37,665 nucleotides of DNA, taken from positions 1 to 37,665 of the IMG/VR virus record IMGVR_UViG_3300045988_106261, one strand, 5' to 3'. The DNA is from a virus. Positions within the stretch are counted from its first letter, which is position 1, and every line of letters starts with the position of its first letter. The position numbers and the translations under genes are program-made. Of this stretch, positions 161-22,134 are shown piece by piece. The notes below the pieces were generated by a model. It did not search any database. It saw only the letters and a program-made list of their open reading frames with translations, and had not been told where the DNA came from.

Positions 161-1294
161 TCACCCTTGAGCCTTCCTGAATGCAGCGGTGGTCGCAGCC
201 GCCAAATCTTCACGCTGGCCGTCCAGCTCGTGGCGGTAAACCCCTGCGGTATCCATGTTCTTGCTGTGGCCTACCAGCATTTTCAGTTGGCTGTCGGTCA
301 GCACGCCGGACTCGACGCTGACGAACGTATGCCGCATCTCATACAGCGTAACCTGTGGCTCAATTCCGTTATCCTTCTGGTACTTCTTCCAGCGCTTGAA
401 TAAAGCCCTCTGGTTCGGAATCTGGAACAAAGGGGTGGTATAGTTCAGCGGGATACCGGAAGCCTTCAGCAAGGCCACCTGCGCTTCGTATGCCTCACGG
501 GCTTCCTTCCCCATGTCGAACGAACGAATAGCGTTTTCATTCTTTCCGGTGGTTTCTTCATCCATCCGGTTGATGCTGCGGCGCAGATTGACGGTGTTCC
601 CCTTAATGTCGCCGTACCAGAGCCCCACAAGCTCCCCCGGGCGTACACCTGTAGCCACCGTAAAACGATAGGCATAAATATATTCGTCAAAGACTCGCTT
701 TCCATAGTAAAGGCGGCTATCCACGTCAAACAGGATTTTCAATGCAGATGGCTGTAAGATATTTTTCTTCCCCATCCGGGCATTCTTCGGGATCGACAGC
801 TCAGGGAACAGGGCGCTGTACTTGTTCCGGCGGCACCATTTCACAAAGCTGATTTCTGTCGAGCGGATCGTCATAAGGGTTTTGCGGCTCAGAGGTTTGT
901 CACTCGTGCGCTTTCCCCCTTTTTTGAGGCAGCGCTTTTTGAAAGACATGTCAATCGCCTTTTGCAGATCGCCCTCGGTCAGCTCGTCGATGCGGATGTT
1001 CCCACACACCGGGAGAATGTAGTATTCGCCGTATTTGTTGCACTGGATCACATAGGACGTGCCGCAGGTCAGCTTCAGCTCTTCCACCCACTCGGCATAG
1101 AGCGTGGCCACCTTCTTCCTGCCGTCCCGGATGCTGTCATCAAGCCATGCATCCGCTTTTGCGTTTGCTTCACGCTGGCCGGTGCGGCCGGGTGTGCTGC
1201 TGTAAAACCGCTTGCGGGTGCCGTTCTTCTGCACCGCGATGCACCAGCGCTTTTCCTTTTCTACCCAAAATGCCGTGTTGACTCGTTTTTTCAT
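161..1294 (-). CDS. int: Tyrosine-type site-specific integrase
   Basis: A 378-aa ORF starts at ATG 1292-1294 (rc), preceded by GGAGGTG (rc of 1301-1307) with a 6-nt spacer. The ORF-track extension to 1411 has no RBS. Tyrosine-recombinase signature is visible: GVRPGELVGL, LYEMRHTFVS, LVGHSKNMDTAGVYRH (catalytic R, H/R and Y). The gene is adjacent to attL. Confidence 0.95.
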   Translation of the reverse strand: MKKRVNTAFWVEKEKRWCIAVQKNGTRKRFYSSTPGRTGQREANAKADAWLDDSIRDGRKKVATLYAEWVEELKLTCGTSYVIQCNKYGEYYILPVCGNIRIDELTEGDLQKAIDMSFKKRCLKKGGKRTSDKPLSRKTLMTIRSTEISFVKWCRRNKYSALFPELSIPKNARMGKKNILQPSALKILFDVDSRLYYGKRVFDEYIYAYRFTVATGVRPGELVGLWYGDIKGNTVNLRRSINRMDEETTGKNENAIRSFDMGKEAREAYEAQVALLKASGIPLNYTTPLFQIPNQRALFKRWKKYQKDNGIEPQVTLYEMRHTFVSVESGVLTDSQLKMLVGHSKNMDTAGVYRHELDGQREDLAAATTAAFRKAQG

Positions 1295-1410
1295 AAAATC
1301 CACCTCCATACACAAGGGTACACTTTGACAAGCCTGCCCGGAGGTGGTATCATAAATCTGTACGGTTCCCCAACTGTACGATCTGTGATGCCATCCGGCA
1401 AGCAGATTCA

Positions 1411-1444
1411 CTCTCCCGGCGTTGGCGCGCCGGGAGAGTTTTTT
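1411..1444 (+). terminator. Intrinsic-terminator-like hairpin, T-run on plus strand
   Basis: CTCTCCCGGCG (1411-1421), loop ttggcg, CGCCGGGAGAG (1428-1438) form a perfect 11-bp stem, followed by TTTTTT (1439-1444). Confidence 0.6.
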
Positions 1445-4360: not shown

Positions 4361-5194
4361 TCAGATATCGAAGCAAACACTAACAAAAGTTTTTCCAAGC
4401 GGTGTCAACCGGACAATTCCCTTATCAAAGTCCAGTGATTGCACTTTTCTGTCATTGATCTTTGCTTCGCAGGCTTTCATTTGGAGCAACTCGCTTTCCA
4501 ATATATCTCTCAGTTCATTTTTGATAAATACGTCATACAATTTCTCATCCAACAGCCAACAGTCATAGCGAATTTCTATCAACCCTTGTCGTTCCAATGA
4601 ACTTAAAGATGTGGCTTGAAGGTTGATGTCTGTGGCATGAATCATCTTAGGGTTCTTTAAAAAACAATTTGTAAACGCAGCGCTTTCGCCGTCGTTCTCC
4701 AGAGTGTATTTATACCTTGCAATCGGAAGAGTTCGATCGCCTTTGAACAGTTCCAAATTTTCAGCGTCCAAAGGAGACATCTGCGCAATCATAGCCGAAA
4801 AGGAAGGATGCACCTGACTTTGATATCTTATATCGGCAGAATTTGCAAGCAGATTTTGAAACATCTTTCGGATTTGTGGCTCGTCCATGCAAAATTTTGC
4901 ATTTTCGACAGCGGGGCCAACCACCTGCATACGAGGTTCAACCAAGCATTCTGCTGGTTTTGCATTCAACTTGTCACTCAGTGATTTTTTAAACTCTTCT
5001 AAATCATGTGCTTGTTGCAACCTCATCTTTTCTGCTGAAAAATGGATTTTGCTTGTTGCCATTGCAAGAAGATCTCCAAAAAGAGTTCCAATCTGATTAG
5101 CACCGGGGTTCAGAACAGCCTTTACAGGTTCGTCAATGCAACTTGGTACGGCATTGATGTTAAAGGTGTTGCCGCTATTCTTCTCATCACTCAT
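4361..5194 (-). CDS. Abi_alpha/DUF4393-like protein (cassette gene 1, abortive-infection-associated family)
   Basis: A 277-aa ORF starts at ATG 5192-5194 (rc) with a purine-rich RBS AAAGAAAGGAA. Motifs MFQNLLANSAD and VHPSFSAMIAQMSPLDAENLELF match my recollection of the Abi_alpha (PF14337) core. The start at 5224 or 5275 is less likely because there is no RBS and they lie upstream of or at the predicted transcript start. Confidence 0.65.
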   Translation of the reverse strand: MSDEKNSGNTFNINAVPSCIDEPVKAVLNPGANQIGTLFGDLLAMATSKIHFSAEKMRLQQAHDLEEFKKSLSDKLNAKPAECLVEPRMQVVGPAVENAKFCMDEPQIRKMFQNLLANSADIRYQSQVHPSFSAMIAQMSPLDAENLELFKGDRTLPIARYKYTLENDGESAAFTNCFLKNPKMIHATDINLQATSLSSLERQGLIEIRYDCWLLDEKLYDVFIKNELRDILESELLQMKACEAKINDRKVQSLDFDKGIVRLTPLGKTFVSVCFDI

Positions 5195-5246
5195 CTTATC
5201 ATTCCTTTCTTTGGGAGGTTCCATGGACAAACTTATTCTGATTATA

Positions 5247-5275
5247 AAAATACTCGTCACTGAGCAGAAAGTCAA
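5247..5275 (-). promoter_or_regulatory. Candidate promoter of the minus-strand cassette
   Basis: Minus strand: TTGACT (rc of 5270-5275), 17 nt, TATTTT (rc of 5247-5252). Confidence 0.55.
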
Positions 5276-5359
5276 ATTTTATACAGCAGTCTGCCGTGTG
5301 TGCGAAAGAATCGAACGTTATATTGAAATTCATCGAAAATAAGGAGGTACATATTCACC

Positions 5360-5677
5360 ATGAACGACTTGACCACATTCACTAATCCCGAGTTCGGGCA
5401 GGTGCGCATCGTCGAGATTGACGGCACACCGTGGCTCGTCGGCAAGGACGTTGCCGTGGCGCTGGGGTACAAGAATCCCCAGCGTGCTATCCGCGACCAT
5501 GTTGACGCCGAGGACAAAGGGGTGACCAAAACAGTCACCCCCTCCGGTGAGCAGGAAATGCTCATTATCAACGAGTCCGGTCTGTACAGCCTGATCCTGA
5601 GCAGCAAGATGCCCAAGGCCAAGGCTTTCAAGCGCTGGGTGACCAGCGAGGTGCTGCCCGCCAAGAAGGAGGAATAA
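5360..5677 (+). CDS. BRO-N domain antirepressor-like protein
   Basis: FTNPEFGQVRIVEIDGTPWLVGKDVAVALGY...AIRDHVD...LIINESGLYSLILSSKMPKAKAFKRWVTSEVLP is the typical Bro-N pattern. RBS is AAGGAGG (5341-5347). Confidence 0.88.
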   Translation: MNDLTTFTNPEFGQVRIVEIDGTPWLVGKDVAVALGYKNPQRAIRDHVDAEDKGVTKTVTPSGEQEMLIINESGLYSLILSSKMPKAKAFKRWVTSEVLPAKKEE

Positions 5678-17308: not shown

Positions 17309-18551
17309 GTTTCAGCAGGAGTTCCTTCGCAATTGTTCCCACCGCTGGAACGTCAAGACTGGGGCCACCCGCTCCGGCAAGACCTATCTGGACTGCGCTG
17401 TTACCATCCCCAAGCGCATCTGCGCGGCCCGGGACGAGGGCCTTTGCGTCATGCTGGGCAACACCCTCGGCACGCTGGAACGCAACGTGCTGGAGCCCAT
17501 GCGGGCCCTCTGGGGTCCGGAGCTTGTGGGCGTGGTGCGCACCTCGGCGTCCGGCAACATCGTGCAGCTGTTCGGCCGCAAGGTGTACGTGCTGGGTGCC
17601 GACAACAAAAAGCACATTGCACGCATTCAGGGCGCAGCCTTCGAGTACGCCTATGGGGACGAGATCACCACATGGGACGAGGGCGTGTTCCAGATGCTCA
17701 AGAGCCGTCTGTCCTGTCCGCACAGCCATTTTGACGGCACCTGCAACCCGGATAACCCCCAGCACTGGTTCAAGCAGTTTCTGGACAGCGACGCGGACAT
17801 CTACTGTCAGGCCTACACCATCGACGACAACCCCACTCTGCCGCCGGAGTTCGTGGCTCAGCTGAAAAAGGAGTACGCGGGCACGGTCTACTATAACCGC
17901 TTCATCCTCGGCCAGTGGGCTGCAGCGGGCGGCATCATCTACCGGCCTTTTGCAGACAGCATTGCCGCCGGGGATGGGCGTTTTCTCTGGCCCGCAGCCA
18001 ACCCCTGCCGCCCGTGGCGCATCTACATCGGGGTGGACTTCGGCGGCAACGGCTCCCGGCACGCATTCGTGGCCACCGGCATCCTGCCCTACTACGCGGG
18101 GATCGTGGGTCTGGCATCCGCCCGCATCGACCCGAAGGATCAGGACGCTGACTACCTTGCCGCGCAGCTGATTGATTTCTGCACCGCCGTGTTCGCGCGG
18201 TACGGCGAGATCCACTATATTTTCTGCGACAGCGCCGAACAGACGCTGATCAACCACATCCGCACCCGGCTGCGTGCCTCCCGCCTGAGCTGGCTGGCCG
18301 ACCGGGTGCAGAACAGTGCCAAGATCCAGATCATCGACCGCATCCGCCTGACGTCCATCCTGATGGGCGGCGGGCGCTTTTGGTATCTGCCGGAAGCCGC
18401 CACCCTGCGGGATGCCCTTGCCGCCGCCCTGTGGAGCCAGAAGCACCCCGGCGTGGATGAACGTCTGGACGACGGCACCACCGACATTGATACCCTCGAT
18501 GCCTTCGAGTACACCATTGAACGCGATTACAGGAGACTGACTGCAAGATGA
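17295..18551 (+). CDS. terL: Terminase large subunit (PBSX/Terminase_3-like)
   Basis: The likely start is GTG 17295, 6 nt after GGAGGTG (17282-17288). Walker A is VKTGATRSGKT. The C-terminal nuclease half has IGVDFGGNGS and CDSAEQTLI motifs. Confidence 0.92.
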   Translation: MPLTEFQQEFLRNCSHRWNVKTGATRSGKTYLDCAVTIPKRICAARDEGLCVMLGNTLGTLERNVLEPMRALWGPELVGVVRTSASGNIVQLFGRKVYVLGADNKKHIARIQGAAFEYAYGDEITTWDEGVFQMLKSRLSCPHSHFDGTCNPDNPQHWFKQFLDSDADIYCQAYTIDDNPTLPPEFVAQLKKEYAGTVYYNRFILGQWAAAGGIIYRPFADSIAAGDGRFLWPAANPCRPWRIYIGVDFGGNGSRHAFVATGILPYYAGIVGLASARIDPKDQDADYLAAQLIDFCTAVFARYGEIHYIFCDSAEQTLINHIRTRLRASRLSWLADRVQNSAKIQIIDRIRLTSILMGGGRFWYLPEAATLRDALAAALWSQKHPGVDERLDDGTTDIDTLDAFEYTIERDYRRLTAR

Positions 18552-20038
18552 ACGTTGCTGCTTTTATTGAATACCTGAACAAAACCAAGGACCTGCAGAT
18601 CGACGCCTCCTATTATGCCAAAATTGAAAAATGGCGGCAGTGGTGGCAGGGCTATGTACCCAGCGTGCATAATATCAAGATCACGCGGGAGGACGGCGAA
18701 CACAAGCGCCGCCGGGCGTCCCTGCGGATGCCCAAGCGCGTGTGCGAGGACTGGGCAAATCTGCTGCTCAACGACAAGACCACCTTCCAGATCGGCGACG
18801 CAGCCACCGCCGCCTACCTGCTGGGCAGCAATGAACAGCAGACCGGCGGTCTTTTGCGGCAGCTGCATTTCTGGGAGAACGCCAACAAGCTGGTGGAGAA
18901 AGCCTACTGGTCCGGCACCGGCGCCTTCGTACTGAGCGTGGAGGGCATCAAGGGCACAGACGGCCAGCTGGAAGCAGACCCGGATGCCCGCATCGTACTG
19001 GACTACGACCCGGCATCCTGCATCCTGCCCATCAGCGTGGAGCGCGGCGTCGTGACTGAAGCCGCATTTGTGTCGGAATGTCTGATAGACGGCAGGCCCT
19101 GCGCCTATCTGCAGACCCACGCGGTCAGGGACGGCAGCCGCACTATCATCAACGAATGGTTTGAGATCGGTCAGGGTCAGAACGGCGCACCGGTGTTCAC
19201 GCCGCGCAAAGCGCCTGTAGGTACGGTGACTGAATTGCAGCCGGAGGGCTCCCCGCCGTGGTTCAGCCTGTTTTCCCCTGCCGCCGAGAAGAACATCGAC
19301 GGCGGTACGGGTCTGGGCATGGCCGTGTTCGCGGAAGCTCTGGACGCCGCGCAGGGCGTAGACCTTGCCTTTGACAATTACCGGCAGGACCTTTACCTTG
19401 GCGGCAAGAAGATCTTCTACGACCGCAGCCTGTGCAAGGTGGTGATCGGTGCCGATGGCCAGCCGCATTACATCCCGCCCGACGACATGAGCGCACAGCA
19501 GTTCTTCTCGCTGCCCGGCAAGGAAGCCAGTCTGGATGCCGCGCCGGAGTGGCACGAGTACAACCCGGATCTGCGCACCGAGGACAACCACCGGGCCGTG
19601 CAGGATATGCTGGATCTATTCAGCTTCAAGTGCGGTCTGGGCTGTCACCGGTACAGCTTTGAGCTGGGCAAGGTGGCCACCGCCACCGAGTACACCGGCA
19701 GCCGGCAAGACCTTGTGCAGAGTGCCAACAAGAACCAGATCCCCATTGAAACGGCGCTGATCGGCATTCTGCGGGCCATCCTGTGGGCCGCAAAGAACCT
19801 GCTGGGCGCACCGGTAGACCCGGAGACCAGCATTTCCGTCAACTGGGACGACAGTTACATCGTCAGTGAGCAGGAACGCACAAACCAGCTGCGGGAGGAC
19901 GCCATTGCGGGCCTTGTGCCCCGCTGCCGCTACCTCGCCGCCCGGTACGGCCTGAGCGAAAAGGAAGCCCACGCATGGGCCGAGGAAGCCAAAGCGGACA
20001 GCCACACTGACGAAACTCTCACCTTCGGGGGTGCCTGA
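18548..20038 (+). CDS. Portal protein (SPP1 gp6-like)
   Basis: 496 aa, with an ATGA overlap with terL. The N-terminus YAKIEKWRQWWQGYVPSVH...RRASLRMPKRVCEDWANLLLN is typical of SPP1-type portals. The position is canonical. Confidence 0.9.
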   Translation: MNVAAFIEYLNKTKDLQIDASYYAKIEKWRQWWQGYVPSVHNIKITREDGEHKRRRASLRMPKRVCEDWANLLLNDKTTFQIGDAATAAYLLGSNEQQTGGLLRQLHFWENANKLVEKAYWSGTGAFVLSVEGIKGTDGQLEADPDARIVLDYDPASCILPISVERGVVTEAAFVSECLIDGRPCAYLQTHAVRDGSRTIINEWFEIGQGQNGAPVFTPRKAPVGTVTELQPEGSPPWFSLFSPAAEKNIDGGTGLGMAVFAEALDAAQGVDLAFDNYRQDLYLGGKKIFYDRSLCKVVIGADGQPHYIPPDDMSAQQFFSLPGKEASLDAAPEWHEYNPDLRTEDNHRAVQDMLDLFSFKCGLGCHRYSFELGKVATATEYTGSRQDLVQSANKNQIPIETALIGILRAILWAAKNLLGAPVDPETSISVNWDDSYIVSEQERTNQLREDAIAGLVPRCRYLAARYGLSEKEAHAWAEEAKADSHTDETLTFGGA

Positions 20039-21795
20039 TGCTGCCGCCGAGCTATCTTGACCGGATGCCGGACGCCTTTGTGCAGCTCTGGCAGCAGGTC
20101 GAAGAACAGATCCTGCAGGACGTGGCCCGGCGCATCGGCAAGATGGACGCCGTGACCCCCACTGCAAACTGGCAGCTGTGGCGCTACCAGCAGACCGAGG
20201 CGCTGCGCAACGACGTGGTGAAGCTGCTGGCGAAGTACACCGGCAAGAGCGAAAGCACCATCCGCAGGCTGCTTTTGCAGGCCGCCACTGAAGCCATGGA
20301 GCGGGAGGACGCCATCTATTACCACTACGGCAAAGAGCCGCAGCCCTTTGAAGAAAGCGCAGCCCTCAACAACCTGCTGGACGCCGGTGCGCGGCAGACC
20401 TGCGGCACATGGCAGAACCTCACCGCCACCACGGCAAACACCGTCACAGGCGCGTTCGAGCGCACGCTGGACGCCGCATGGTTCAAAGTGAGCACCGGTG
20501 CCTTTGACTACAAAACCGCCGTCAAACAGGCCGTGGACAGCCTTGCAGACGACATGCCCATGGTCACATATCCCAGCGGCCACAAGGACAGCATCGAGGT
20601 GGCCGCGCGGCGTGCCGTGCTCACCGGTGTAAACCAGACGACTGGCAAGCTGCAGGTGGCCCGCATGGACGAAATGGGCTGCGAATTTGTGGAGACGACC
20701 GCCCACGGCGGTGCCCGTCCTTCTCATGCAGAATGGCAGGGGCGGCGCTTCCACCGGGGCGGCGCGGTGGACTACAAAGGCAAACACTACCCGGACTTTG
20801 AAGCCGCTACCGGCTACGGCACCGGCGCAGGCCTTTGCGGCTGGAACTGCCGCCACACCTTTTTCGCGGTGTTCCCGGAACTGGGCGACCCGCCCCAATG
20901 GACACAGGAACAGCTGCAGGAGCTGAACGCCCGGGACATCGAGTGGAACGGCAAAAAGTACACCGCCTACGAGATATCCCAGATGCAGCGGGCCCGGGAG
21001 CGGAACGTCCGCCGCTGGAAAAAGCGGTATCTGGCCGAGGACGCCGCCGGGCTGGACCCCACCGACAGCGCTGTGCGCCTGAGAGCCGCCCGCCAGAGCC
21101 TTGCAGAGTTTGCACAGGCCACGGGTGGCCGTGTGGACAGCGCCCGCACCAGCGTGCCGAAGTTCGGCAGGAGCGAAGCCAGCAGGGCGAGCGCACAGGT
21201 GCGGAAGGCATCCTCTACATACAGCAGCTTGAACACAAAGGCAAAACCTGTTACAATGCAGTCAATCGCAAATGTTAAGGCATTCAGCTGTGACACGCTG
21301 GATGCTGCTGGGCAACAGCAGCTGAAAAATGCTCACAAACGCCTTCTCATGGTTGCTTCCAAGCAGCCGGAAAATGTTGAAGTGGGCAGGGTGTTCGACA
21401 CCAAGATGAAGCCGCTGACGAAGGATATCACGGGAAGCGCCGAGGGAAGTTCTGTTCAGCTGCCCAACTTTGATACCCCGTATGTTGTTATCCACACACA
21501 CCCTGCCTGCGGTATTTTCTCGCACGGTGATTTGTCGAGTTTCACAAGAAACAAAAATTTGAAGCTCATGACGGCCATTGGTCACAATGGTCATATCTAT
21601 GCTGTTGAGAAAAGCATCAATTATGATGCTGCCGCTGCAAACGGCATTGTTTGGAACCTGAATGCCGAAATAAACCGGCTGAAAAATATCCCTCGCGCGG
21701 AACTGTCAGACGAAAAGCTTCTTGAACAGGCAGAGAAGCTGATCCGACAGGCTATCGGAGACCTTCAGGAAAATGGAGTAAAATACTATGAGTAA
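20038..21795 (+). CDS. MuF/SPP1 gp7-like minor head protein fused to a C-terminal JAB/MPN-like domain
   Basis: The N-terminal ~300 aa include ETTAHGGARPSHAEWQGRRF and GLCGWNCRH (MuF/gp7 motifs). The C-terminal ~185 aa, encoded by an AT-richer segment from about 21235, contain ENVEVGRVF and IHTHPACGIFSHGD (E...HxH-x6-S-xx-D, close to the JAMM motif). Confidence 0.8.
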   Translation: MLPPSYLDRMPDAFVQLWQQVEEQILQDVARRIGKMDAVTPTANWQLWRYQQTEALRNDVVKLLAKYTGKSESTIRRLLLQAATEAMEREDAIYYHYGKEPQPFEESAALNNLLDAGARQTCGTWQNLTATTANTVTGAFERTLDAAWFKVSTGAFDYKTAVKQAVDSLADDMPMVTYPSGHKDSIEVAARRAVLTGVNQTTGKLQVARMDEMGCEFVETTAHGGARPSHAEWQGRRFHRGGAVDYKGKHYPDFEAATGYGTGAGLCGWNCRHTFFAVFPELGDPPQWTQEQLQELNARDIEWNGKKYTAYEISQMQRARERNVRRWKKRYLAEDAAGLDPTDSAVRLRAARQSLAEFAQATGGRVDSARTSVPKFGRSEASRASAQVRKASSTYSSLNTKAKPVTMQSIANVKAFSCDTLDAAGQQQLKNAHKRLLMVASKQPENVEVGRVFDTKMKPLTKDITGSAEGSSVQLPNFDTPYVVIHTHPACGIFSHGDLSSFTRNKNLKLMTAIGHNGHIYAVEKSINYDAAAANGIVWNLNAEINRLKNIPRAELSDEKLLEQAEKLIRQAIGDLQENGVKYYE

Positions 21796-21976
21796 CTGGC
21801 TTACACCGGAACGCATTGCAAAAATGCAGAAGTGGCTTCTTGAACATCCGATCGACCACAAGTATGATGAAATGTGCGACATGCTGGACAGCCCTGCCCC
21901 GCCAGAACAGCTTGCTTCCCGTGCTGCATATGAAGCTTTGAAAGAAATTGGCAAGCTTCCACCCGGCATCGAATAA
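21788..21976 (+). CDS. Small acidic protein translationally coupled to the MuF gene (candidate immunity/partner protein)
   Basis: ATG 21788 overlaps the MuF stop by 8 nt, with GGAG 9 nt upstream. The ORF is 62 aa and is followed by two terminator hairpins. Confidence 0.6.
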   Translation: MSNWLTPERIAKMQKWLLEHPIDHKYDEMCDMLDSPAPPEQLASRAAYEALKEIGKLPPGIE

Positions 21977-21989
21977 CCTTAACCACCAT

Positions 21990-22013
21990 CCACCCGGACG
22001 GTGGTTTTCTTTT
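21990..22013 (+). terminator. Intrinsic terminator
   Basis: CCACC (21990-21994), loop CGGAC, GGTGG (22000-22004), followed by TTTTCTTTTG. Confidence 0.6.
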
Positions 22014-22023
22014 GCCCATTTTT

Positions 22024-22055
22024 AAGCACGATGCAGACCGCACCGTGCTTTTTTC
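22024..22055 (+). terminator. Intrinsic terminator (second of tandem pair)
   Basis: AAGCACG (22024-22030) pairs with CGTGCTT (22044-22050) across a 13-nt loop, followed by TTTT. Confidence 0.55.
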
Positions 22056-22057
22056 AT

Positions 22058-22134
22058 GCCGTTTTAGCTCATGTCGGAAGAGCGCCGGTCTCCAAAACCG
22101 GAAGCGGCAGGTTCGAGCCCTGCAAACGGTGCCA
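22058..22134 (+). tRNA. tRNA-Trp: tRNA-Trp, anticodon CCA, with encoded 3' CCA
   Basis: Hand-folded cloverleaf. Acceptor GCCGTTT/AAACGGT has G1-U72. D-arm is GCTC-ATGTCGGAA-GAGC. Anticodon arm is CCGGT-CTCCAAA-ACCGG, identical to the E. coli tRNA-Trp anticodon arm as I recall it. The variable loop is AAGCG. T-arm is GCAGG-TTCGAGC-CCTGC. The discriminator is G, followed by CCA. Confidence 0.88.

Follow-up and report, generated by a model that had tools for sequence, protein, structure and literature searches.

This report concerns a two-gene cassette in a phage genome fragment, IMG/VR virus record IMGVR_UViG_3300045988_106261, whose full 37,665 nucleotides (nt) are called the window below. The cassette consists of the 3′ end of a gene for a MuF2-type minor head protein of 585 amino acids (aa), encoding a C-terminal domain that resembles the JAB/JAMM metallopeptidases, and of a 62-aa open reading frame (ORF) that overlaps its stop codon. 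Comparison with the sequences of related loci shows that nt ~21193–22045 are a mobile two-gene cassette at the end of the MuF2 gene and that the pair moves as a unit from one kind of carrier to another. We propose that the cassette encodes a virion-delivered JAB-like effector or toxin, together with a 62-aa partner that would neutralise it and leave lysogens protected; we give this reading a probability of roughly 0.6. It is likely that the module, a JAB-fold cargo with a probable immunity or inhibitor partner, belongs inside the known scheme of MuF polymorphic toxins.

The cassette and its boundaries

A human-gut phage contig, MT836120.1 (L017), carries a homologous terminase–portal–MuF2 region, and a 3.6-kb match, 75% identical, ends at window position ~21192. 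In direct alignment, homology is lost after the residues GRSEASRAS (~21192) and returns at ~22040–22045, just 5′ of a transfer RNA (tRNA) gene. Between these breakpoints MT836120.1 has an unrelated C-terminus of ~110 aa, whose stop codon is overlapped by a Cys-rich ORF of 68 aa that is unrelated as well. A preliminary description of the window, made from its sequence, had suggested that MuF C-termini be compared for domain swapping, and MT836120.1 does differ between sharp breakpoints. Its alternative cassette (4832–5390 of that contig) includes …DHVLQRWAERGMGP… in the C-terminus and has a GC content of 0.51, also low; neither the alternative C-terminus nor the 68-aa ORF has a match in Pfam or NCBIfam.

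The base composition of the cassette differs from that of the phage around it. GC content drops from ~0.63–0.71 to ~0.46–0.52 across ~21150–22000, and the cassette as a whole has 0.481, against 0.629 upstream and 0.625 downstream in 3-kb flanks, as expected from the earlier remark that the C-terminal segment is AT-richer. In every phage locus the cassette has a GC content of 0.47–0.50, against 0.57–0.64 in the upstream flank. The copy found in a chromosomal island has 0.55, like its surroundings.

The JAB domain and its partner occur as a pair on a MuF2 carrier in the window and in L004, on a VG15 carrier in L008–L010, and without any carrier in the chromosomal island, where the neighbours are a Gp49/helix-turn-helix pair, TnpV, Fic, an integrase and a type I restriction-modification system. 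A further chromosomal locus, L116 (6786–10318; GCA_037022285.1, JBAMEH010001501.1), adjoins serine recombinases and contains a tandem array with three JAB/partner cassettes of different subtypes. Its first unit comprises a 5′-truncated VG15 gene, the linker, the JAB domain and the partner; the second, a remnant of the linker, a fragment of ADPrib_exo_Tox and an ORF of 87 aa; the third, only the final 39 aa of a JAB domain followed by an intact partner; and the fourth, a second truncated VG15–JAB–partner arrangement in which JAB domain and partner are fused in frame. By analogy with the loci described in PMC3482391, L116 has the form of the arrays of orphan toxin and immunity genes that characterise polymorphic toxin loci, and the JAB pair occupies in it the kind of slot that a recognised toxin type also fills. 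Since the assembly seems rich in fragmented genes, single frameshifts in L116 should not be over-read. The array also has a segment of ~50 aa that is repeated twice.

The C-terminal domain

The last 186 aa of the protein have 59 close homologues, and a profile search of 1.84 billion representatives retrieved 700 clusters (at 50% identity) with an expectation value (E) ≤ 1e-3, 222 of them at E ≤ 1e-10. Of two single-sequence scans, the first gave only three partial, more distant matches and the second none. Sources that name family members give only “hypothetical protein”. Scans of Pfam, NCBIfam and PADLOC found no model for the domain, and PHROG 5057 (“unknown function”) overlaps it weakly. 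The search against polymorphic-toxin profiles that had been proposed as a check gave no toxin-domain match in Pfam or NCBIfam.

The putative active-site motif, E...HxH-x6-S-xx-D, with ENVEVGRVF some 40 aa upstream, is present as the preliminary description had it; E448 lies 38 residues N-terminal of HxH. Across 66 aligned divergent members, L437, E448, H486, H488 and D498 are invariant and the Ser/Thr is found in nearly all. This invariance across the family rules out a chance match. The form HxH-x6-[ST]-x2-D, whose spacing is one residue below the canonical x7, is found in 65 of the 66; therefore, the x6 spacing is a signature of the clade and not a local accident. The family consensus is IHNHPSGxxFSxxD, and the signature can be written HxHPx4[FL][ST]xxD. 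Because the catalytic residues are invariant across the family, we infer that the JAB-like domain would be an active Zn hydrolase. In the carrier-less island copy (P0021, in L005–L007) the metal-binding motif contains a duplication of three residues, IHTHPAHPAGGIFSHGD, which alters the His-to-Ser spacing and is present on three independent contigs.

The AlphaFold 2 (AF2) model of aa 385–585 has a predicted local distance difference test score (pLDDT) of 89.9 and a predicted template-modelling score of 0.85; its first 14 residues (aa 385–398) have pLDDT < 50. The order of elements in the model is a long helix, a strand starting at E448, a β-hairpin, a strand ending in the residues HTH, a helix running from S..D, a hairpin with GHNGH at its turn, two long helices and a final strand. 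As modelled, this is the JAMM arrangement. The best Foldseek matches in the PDB are CSN5 (E 0.015), the JAB domain of BubCD (E 0.13) and RadC 2qlc (E 0.21), the last being the best fold match when normalised to the target, with a template-modelling (TM) score of 0.44. Cytidine deaminases, which have the same fold as JAB proteins, rank below the JAB proteins. Against predicted viral structures there were 15 matches at E < 1e-3, mostly to the C-termini of “minor capsid proteins”, and weaker ones (E ~0.01) to a crAss-like “proteasome regulatory subunit” (Rpn11-like) and a giant-virus “deubiquitination hydrolase”. Since motif conservation, predicted topology and every top PDB fold match agree, we call the domain JAB-like, and we regard a JAB/JAMM fold, as predicted by the model, as well supported but not proven.

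The partner

The acidic 62-aa ORF that the preliminary description had seen overlapping the stop codon by 8 nt has homologues in 39 clusters, nearly all of 59–63 aa; its net charge is about −4. It lies directly 3′ of the domain in 13 of 13 loci, which were retrieved by the domain alone. A scan of IMG/VR with a pattern inside the domain (NAHKRLLM) gave 80 loci with the domain, 79 of them with an intact 3′ end; 77 of these 79 have the partner, with the stop-codon overlap in every case. Members that are 26–32% identical to the domain also have overlapping ORFs of 61–64 aa on their 3′ side, which match the partner profile with an hhalign E of 6e-5 (probability 65%, 56 columns). At longer range the partner is less conserved than the domain, 44–50% against 56–61%.

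The AF2 model of the partner (pLDDT 84) is a three-helix bundle with a floppy tail. Judged from this model, the partner is a three-helix bundle and not a β-grasp or ubiquitin-like fold. The tail, L57-P58-P59-G60-x-E62, that is, LPPG(V/I)E, is almost invariant and is predicted to be unstructured. A role for the partner as a DNA-binding regulator was rejected, as the protein is acidic and has no helix-turn-helix fold match.

Carriers of the domain

The preliminary assignment of the 585-aa product to the MuF minor head proteins is confirmed by its match to PF06152 (Phage_min_cap2), by the position of the gene after the portal gene and by the presence of an integrase. The PF06152 match has E 9.4e-125 and 416.8 bits, against a cut-off of 26.3, and covers model positions 1–364 of 366; the carrier also matches PHROG 581, “minor head protein”, with E 1e-116. 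In the classification of the MuF superfamily by Jamet et al. (2017; PMC5576092), PF06152 is MuF2. An identical copy of the gene is found on three metagenome contigs with the portal gene immediately 5′: the portal ORF (18548..20038) abuts the MuF ORF, which starts at 20038, at the portal stop codon, and the gene tables of L001–L003 agree. The order of the head module is portal, MuF, 62-aa gene, scaffold and capsid, and no prohead protease gene was called there. Because the window encodes a tyrosine integrase, at 161..1411 (−), the phage is temperate; it is a temperate phage of gut Clostridia.

Phage_min_cap2 is the N-terminal domain in 33 of the 66 longer family members, followed by Phage_Mu_F (MuF1) in 26 and VG15 in 4, the VG15 members sharing the CxC core motif with MuF. 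Two more have portal proteins and one an LPD3-containing polyvalent protein at the N-terminus; secretion-system trafficking or carrier domains were found in none of the 66. Capsid-resident proteins of the carrier kind are thought to enter the cell together with the DNA (PMC5512222, PMC3482391). From these architectures, the domain appears consistently tied to capsid-internal proteins. The shorter members are free-standing and are found in phages between TerS and TerL, or in the chromosomal island.

Ten of the short proteins (233–316 aa) have a motif close to RD[ED]xGR[FW]T about 100 residues upstream of HxH: P0017, P0019, P0191, P0248, P0253, P0254, P0256–P0258 and P0262 (for example, L020 3501–4352). 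An eleventh match, the 532-aa P0190, has the pattern much further upstream. The proteins with this motif that were checked in context are stand-alone, in the chromosomal island or between TerS and TerL; the motif may serve in packaging or as a pre-toxin element. An IS605-type OrfB/TnpB gene (Cas12f1-like_TNB; L022 1961–3064 and L023 1910–3013) lies in the TerS–TerL interval of a phage, ~450 nt downstream of a free-standing JAB/partner pair, with one 99-aa ORF intervening.

Some carrier genes are split. In L004 (5900–6000), the carrier–JAB gene has a 1-nt deletion in the linker (GTGAACTGA versus GTGAAACTG), and in L008 (5602–6882) and L009, two independent contigs, the VG15 part was called as two ORFs. 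Sequencing error, pseudogene formation or a programmed event could account for such splits. The split genes of L004 and L008 were rejected as a sign that the domain is normally free-standing, the L004 case being a 1-nt frameshift.

Promoter-like element and terminators

At the left edge of the cassette, inside the coding sequence, is a σ70-like promoter candidate that overlaps codons P404-V405-T406-M407. The codons CCT GTT ACA ATG are identical in 7 of 7 loci, against a background in which 74 of the 85 degenerate codons for invariant amino acids vary. All 33 unique IMG/VR sequences, which were chosen by a motif 75 nt downstream of the element, keep CCTGTTACAATG, and the −35 is TTGAAC or TTGAAT in 29 of them. 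The island copy, whose upstream region is its own, is without the element.

Both terminators noted in the preliminary description, each a hairpin followed by a T-run, are real (z −4.0 and −5.6), with only the first flagged by a simple terminator scanner. The right cassette breakpoint, ~22040–22045, falls within the second. A hairpin with a T-run is found in all 35 unique 3′ flanks of related contigs, and the stem sequences differ. Read from the sequence, the promoter-like element, coding region, ribosome-binding site, partner, terminators and foreign GC content would together form the classic layout of a moron. The coordinates of these features are collected in Table 1.

Table 1. Features of the MuF2–JAB gene and its partner in window coordinates.
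Feature	Position (nt)	Strand	Evidence
Full ORF (585 aa), MuF2-type minor head protein with C-terminal JAB-like domain	20038..21795	+	ORF list
Phage_min_cap2 (MuF2) carrier domain, aa 2–358	20041..21111	+	Pfam PF06152
Linker, aa 359–404, holding the left cassette breakpoint (~nt 21192)	21112..21249	+	Alignment with MT836120.1
σ70-like promoter candidate: −35 TTGAAC (21229–21234), 17-nt spacer, extended −10 TGTTACAAT (21249–21257)	21229..21257	+	Consensus scan
JAB/JAMM-like domain, aa 405–585 (~181 aa), with helical N-terminal extension and two C-terminal helices	21250..21792	+	AF2, Foldseek, family alignments
Invariant Glu E448 in ENVEVGRVF, predicted catalytic base	21379..21381	+	Conservation, n = 66
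HTHPACGIFSHGD, with predicted metal ligands H486, H488 and D498, plus S495	21493..21531	+	Family alignments
GGAG Shine-Dalgarno sequence, 9 nt upstream of the partner ATG	21775..21778	+	Read from sequence
62-aa acidic partner ORF, candidate immunity protein or inhibitor, overlapping the JAB stop codon by 8 nt	21788..21976	+	ORF list
Intrinsic terminator 1, hairpin 21981–22006 with T-run	21981..22015	+	−14.4 kcal/mol, z −4.0
Intrinsic terminator 2, hairpin 22024–22050 with T6	22024..22056	+	−13.2 kcal/mol, z −5.6

Proposed mechanism and alternatives

By analogy with SPP1 gp7 and MuF proteins, and with the MuF toxins (PMC5576092), the MuF part of the fusion would bind the portal, and a few copies of the fusion would be held inside the capsid. 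The JAB-like domain would then be ejected with the DNA into the next host cell, where it would act as a metal-dependent hydrolase, as an effector or a toxin, and the 62-aa protein would bind and neutralise it. Lysogens would transcribe the distal part of the gene pair from the left-edge promoter and translate the partner from its own GGAG; they would be protected because the partner is made from this cassette-edge promoter. The preliminary description had offered a novel toxin/immunity pair as one of its options, and this option has clear comparative support in the swappable cargo and the tightly linked downstream gene.

Several observations weigh against the proposal of a JAB-like toxin with a neutralising partner. 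Most MuF toxin domains recur in other polymorphic-toxin families, whereas this one is found only on virion carriers or stand-alone, a restriction equally compatible with a generic toxin and with an effector specific to phages. At close range the partner is 92% identical and the domain 73–77%, which is atypical for fast-evolving immunity proteins. The partner is without a recognisable immunity fold: Foldseek of its model gave no match below E = 1, a null result that argues against a ubiquitin-like fold without identifying the protein. The promoter call rests on a consensus match and nucleotide conservation, and the conserved promoter-like DNA could be a recombination junction instead. As for the fold, the PDB matches are weak (E 0.015–0.21, probability 0.44–0.77, TM ~0.29 of the query), the spacing from HxH to Ser is one residue short of the canonical JAMM form, and no hidden Markov model (HMM) of the JAB clan reaches its curated threshold with this protein or with 34 family members. 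Prok-JAB scores 13.1–13.3 bits with this protein, against a cut-off of 25, and is the sole Pfam family matched repeatedly, by 4 of the 34 members (best E 0.0048, all sub-threshold); the RadC model is matched by one of the 34 (E 0.13) and DUF4329, which is Tox-JAB-2, also by one (E 0.22). Searches of PDB chains with the single sequence and with two family profiles gave only spurious helical-repeat or very weak matches. When the family profile is aligned by hhalign with the single sequence of E. coli YicR, the probability is 65% over 13 columns; with the single sequences of YicR and lambda K, only the HxHPSG segment aligns, too weakly to place the clade. The JAB/MPN-like assignment of the preliminary description is partly supported, by motif, predicted topology and PDB fold matches, but is weaker than it was put there, given the sub-threshold JAB HMMs and modest Foldseek values.

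The predicted enzyme may cut a peptide or isopeptide bond, or it may act on a nucleic acid. The HNHPSG consensus points towards RadC, and for the RadC and Tox-JAB clades action on nucleic acids has been suggested, yet the top fold matches are peptidases. It is conceivable that an injected JAB isopeptidase strips the ubiquitin-like conjugates of defences of the Bil type or the Cap2 type (type II CBASS, a system of anti-phage signalling based on cyclic oligonucleotides), with the 62-aa protein as its chaperone or regulator and not as an immunity protein. The best PDB matches, CSN5 and the BubC JAB domain (E values as given above), are indeed true peptidases of ubiquitin-like (Ubl) proteins, all catalytic residues are kept, and exclusive attachment to virion carriers would suit action at the very start of infection. 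We nevertheless consider this unlikely. No Ubl, E1 or E2 is found among the called genes of related loci, the PADLOC models, among which the JAB components of defence systems would be expected, gave no JAB-type match, and the HNHPSG consensus and short spacing are nearer to RadC and Tox-JAB than to JABs of the deubiquitinase type. Moreover, an isopeptidase of this kind leaves unexplained the strictly co-inherited partner and the orphan cassettes whose sole intact member is the partner. The other option of the preliminary description, a counter to defences based on ubiquitin-like conjugation, is thus without gene-context support, given the lack of E1, E2 or Ubl among the called genes and the predicted three-helix bundle of the partner. 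A more general version, in which a capsid-dedicated JAB clade, co-evolved with its partner and gated by it, would strip a host immune modification (for example, a ubiquitin-like conjugate) at injection, as a deconjugase and not a growth-inhibiting toxin, is likewise improbable in our judgement.

The partner might also be a substrate, cofactor or co-effector, for instance processed at its LPPG(V/I)E tail, with both proteins acting in the target cell. The nearly invariant tail, predicted to be unstructured, would suit such a role; trimming of C-terminal tails after Gly is common among JAB enzymes (PMC11601596), conservation of the partner is high, and one contig has JAB domain and partner fused in frame. 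The tail varies, however, with G60 replaced by N or D in related loci, and distant partners end in GLL, not PPG. The fusion comes from an assembly with apparently many fragmented genes, and the retention of a partner beside a truncated JAB domain suggests that it is useful alone. Taken together, we find such a role quite unlikely. Very improbable, finally, is a function in assembly, with the JAB-like domain as a head-maturation or self-processing protease and the partner as an assembly chaperone. In its favour, the head module has no called prohead protease gene and the domain is always on capsid-internal proteins; however, MT836120.1, with closely related head genes, has unrelated sequences in place of domain and partner, so the cassette is dispensable for assembly. 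The pair is also found away from head genes, in the chromosomal island and between TerS and TerL, and the composition of the cassette is foreign to the phage.

Comparison with known systems

Temperate phages are known to encode MuF polymorphic toxins that have immunity genes downstream of them (Jamet et al., 2017; PMC5576092), and “MuF phage-capsid-like” delivery was described by Zhang et al. (2012; PMC3482391). The cassette is like these systems in having a MuF2 carrier whose gene immediately follows that for the portal in a temperate phage, a variable C-terminus that is swapped between homologous carriers, orphan cassettes elsewhere, and a small downstream gene at the immunity position that is intact even where the JAB part is truncated. 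It differs in that its C-terminal domain is not among the MuF toxins listed in PMC5576092; a search of that paper and its supplements for “JAB” gave nothing relevant. By the Pfam and NCBIfam scans it is not a recognised toxin domain, and none of the 66 longer members has it on a secretion-system carrier; indirect support for a toxin comes from the orphan copies beside the ADPrib_exo_Tox fragment in L116.

JAB-fold toxin clades paired with dedicated immunity proteins have been described (PMC3482391). Tox-JAB-1 and Tox-JAB-2 (DUF4329) share with the present domain the JAB/deaminase-like fold, which for the latter is predicted, the residues E, H[ST]H, S and D, and divergence from the Ubl-specific JABs; each is paired with a dedicated immunity family, as the present domain is with its candidate immunity protein. 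They are carried, however, on toxins of the RHS, type VI secretion system or type VII secretion system kinds, with Imm65 or NTF2-type immunity proteins, whereas the partner here is a 62-aa protein with a predicted three-helix bundle, and the x6 spacing from HxH to Ser is unlike theirs. The (I)HNHPSG consensus is the RadC signature (PF04002; E. coli YicR; PDB 2qlc), and RadC-type JABs are also found in proteins injected by mobile elements, including the polyvalent proteins of phages and plasmids (PMC5512222); RadC differs in its x7 spacing (PSG...PS..D) and in having no 62-aa partner. The RadC and Tox-JAB clades have been predicted not to act on ubiquitin-like tails (PMC3482391, PMC5512222): as Zhang et al. 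and Iyer et al. argue, they are without the tunnel for the ubiquitin tail and may act on nucleic acids.

With the Ubl-specific JAB/JAMM peptidases (CSN5/Rpn11, Cap3, BilB and BubC), the domain shares the catalytic constellation and the predicted core topology. The JAB domain of BubC, in BubCD, has been shown to be a Zn peptidase (PMC11601596). Unlike these enzymes, the domain has no Ubl, E1 or E2 in its context, has a spacing one residue shorter, and stays below threshold with the HMMs. A literature search for MuF together with JAB found no description of such a fusion. In the literature searched and the domain libraries, the domain family, its partner, the exclusive link to capsid-internal carriers and the moron-like unit have no description, while MuF-delivered polymorphic toxins with immunity genes, and JAB-fold toxin domains on other carriers, are already known.

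Other features of the phage

Between the cassette and the scaffold gene, at 22058–22134 (+), is a gene for tRNA-Trp(CCA) whose CCA end is encoded. A tRNA gene is found in the matching interval of related loci with varying identity: Trp(CCA) in L004 and L012, Ala(CGC) in MT836120.1 and Thr(CGT) in L011, with none in L008 and L010. Near the tyrosine integrase gene, at 4361–5275 (−), the window encodes an Abi_alpha protein (abortive infection alpha; PF14337, E 1e-42), which is probably a prophage-borne defence gene.

Significance

About two thirds of MuF C-terminal extensions are without a recognised domain (PMC5576092). For one large group of these extensions, frequent among phages of Clostridia in the human gut, there is now a predicted fold together with a catalytic motif, a cognate partner and well-defined limits of the cassette. 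A JAB-fold enzyme would thereby join the cargo that phages may inject with their DNA. The module is compact, a 181-aa domain and a 62-aa partner, and whether it is toxic, whether it confers immunity and what it acts on can easily be tested. The internal promoter, if real, would show how expression in a lysogen could be confined to the protective half of a gene fusion. Should the domain prove to act on a ubiquitin-like conjugate, the module would be of direct relevance to how phages counter defences of the Bil and CBASS types.

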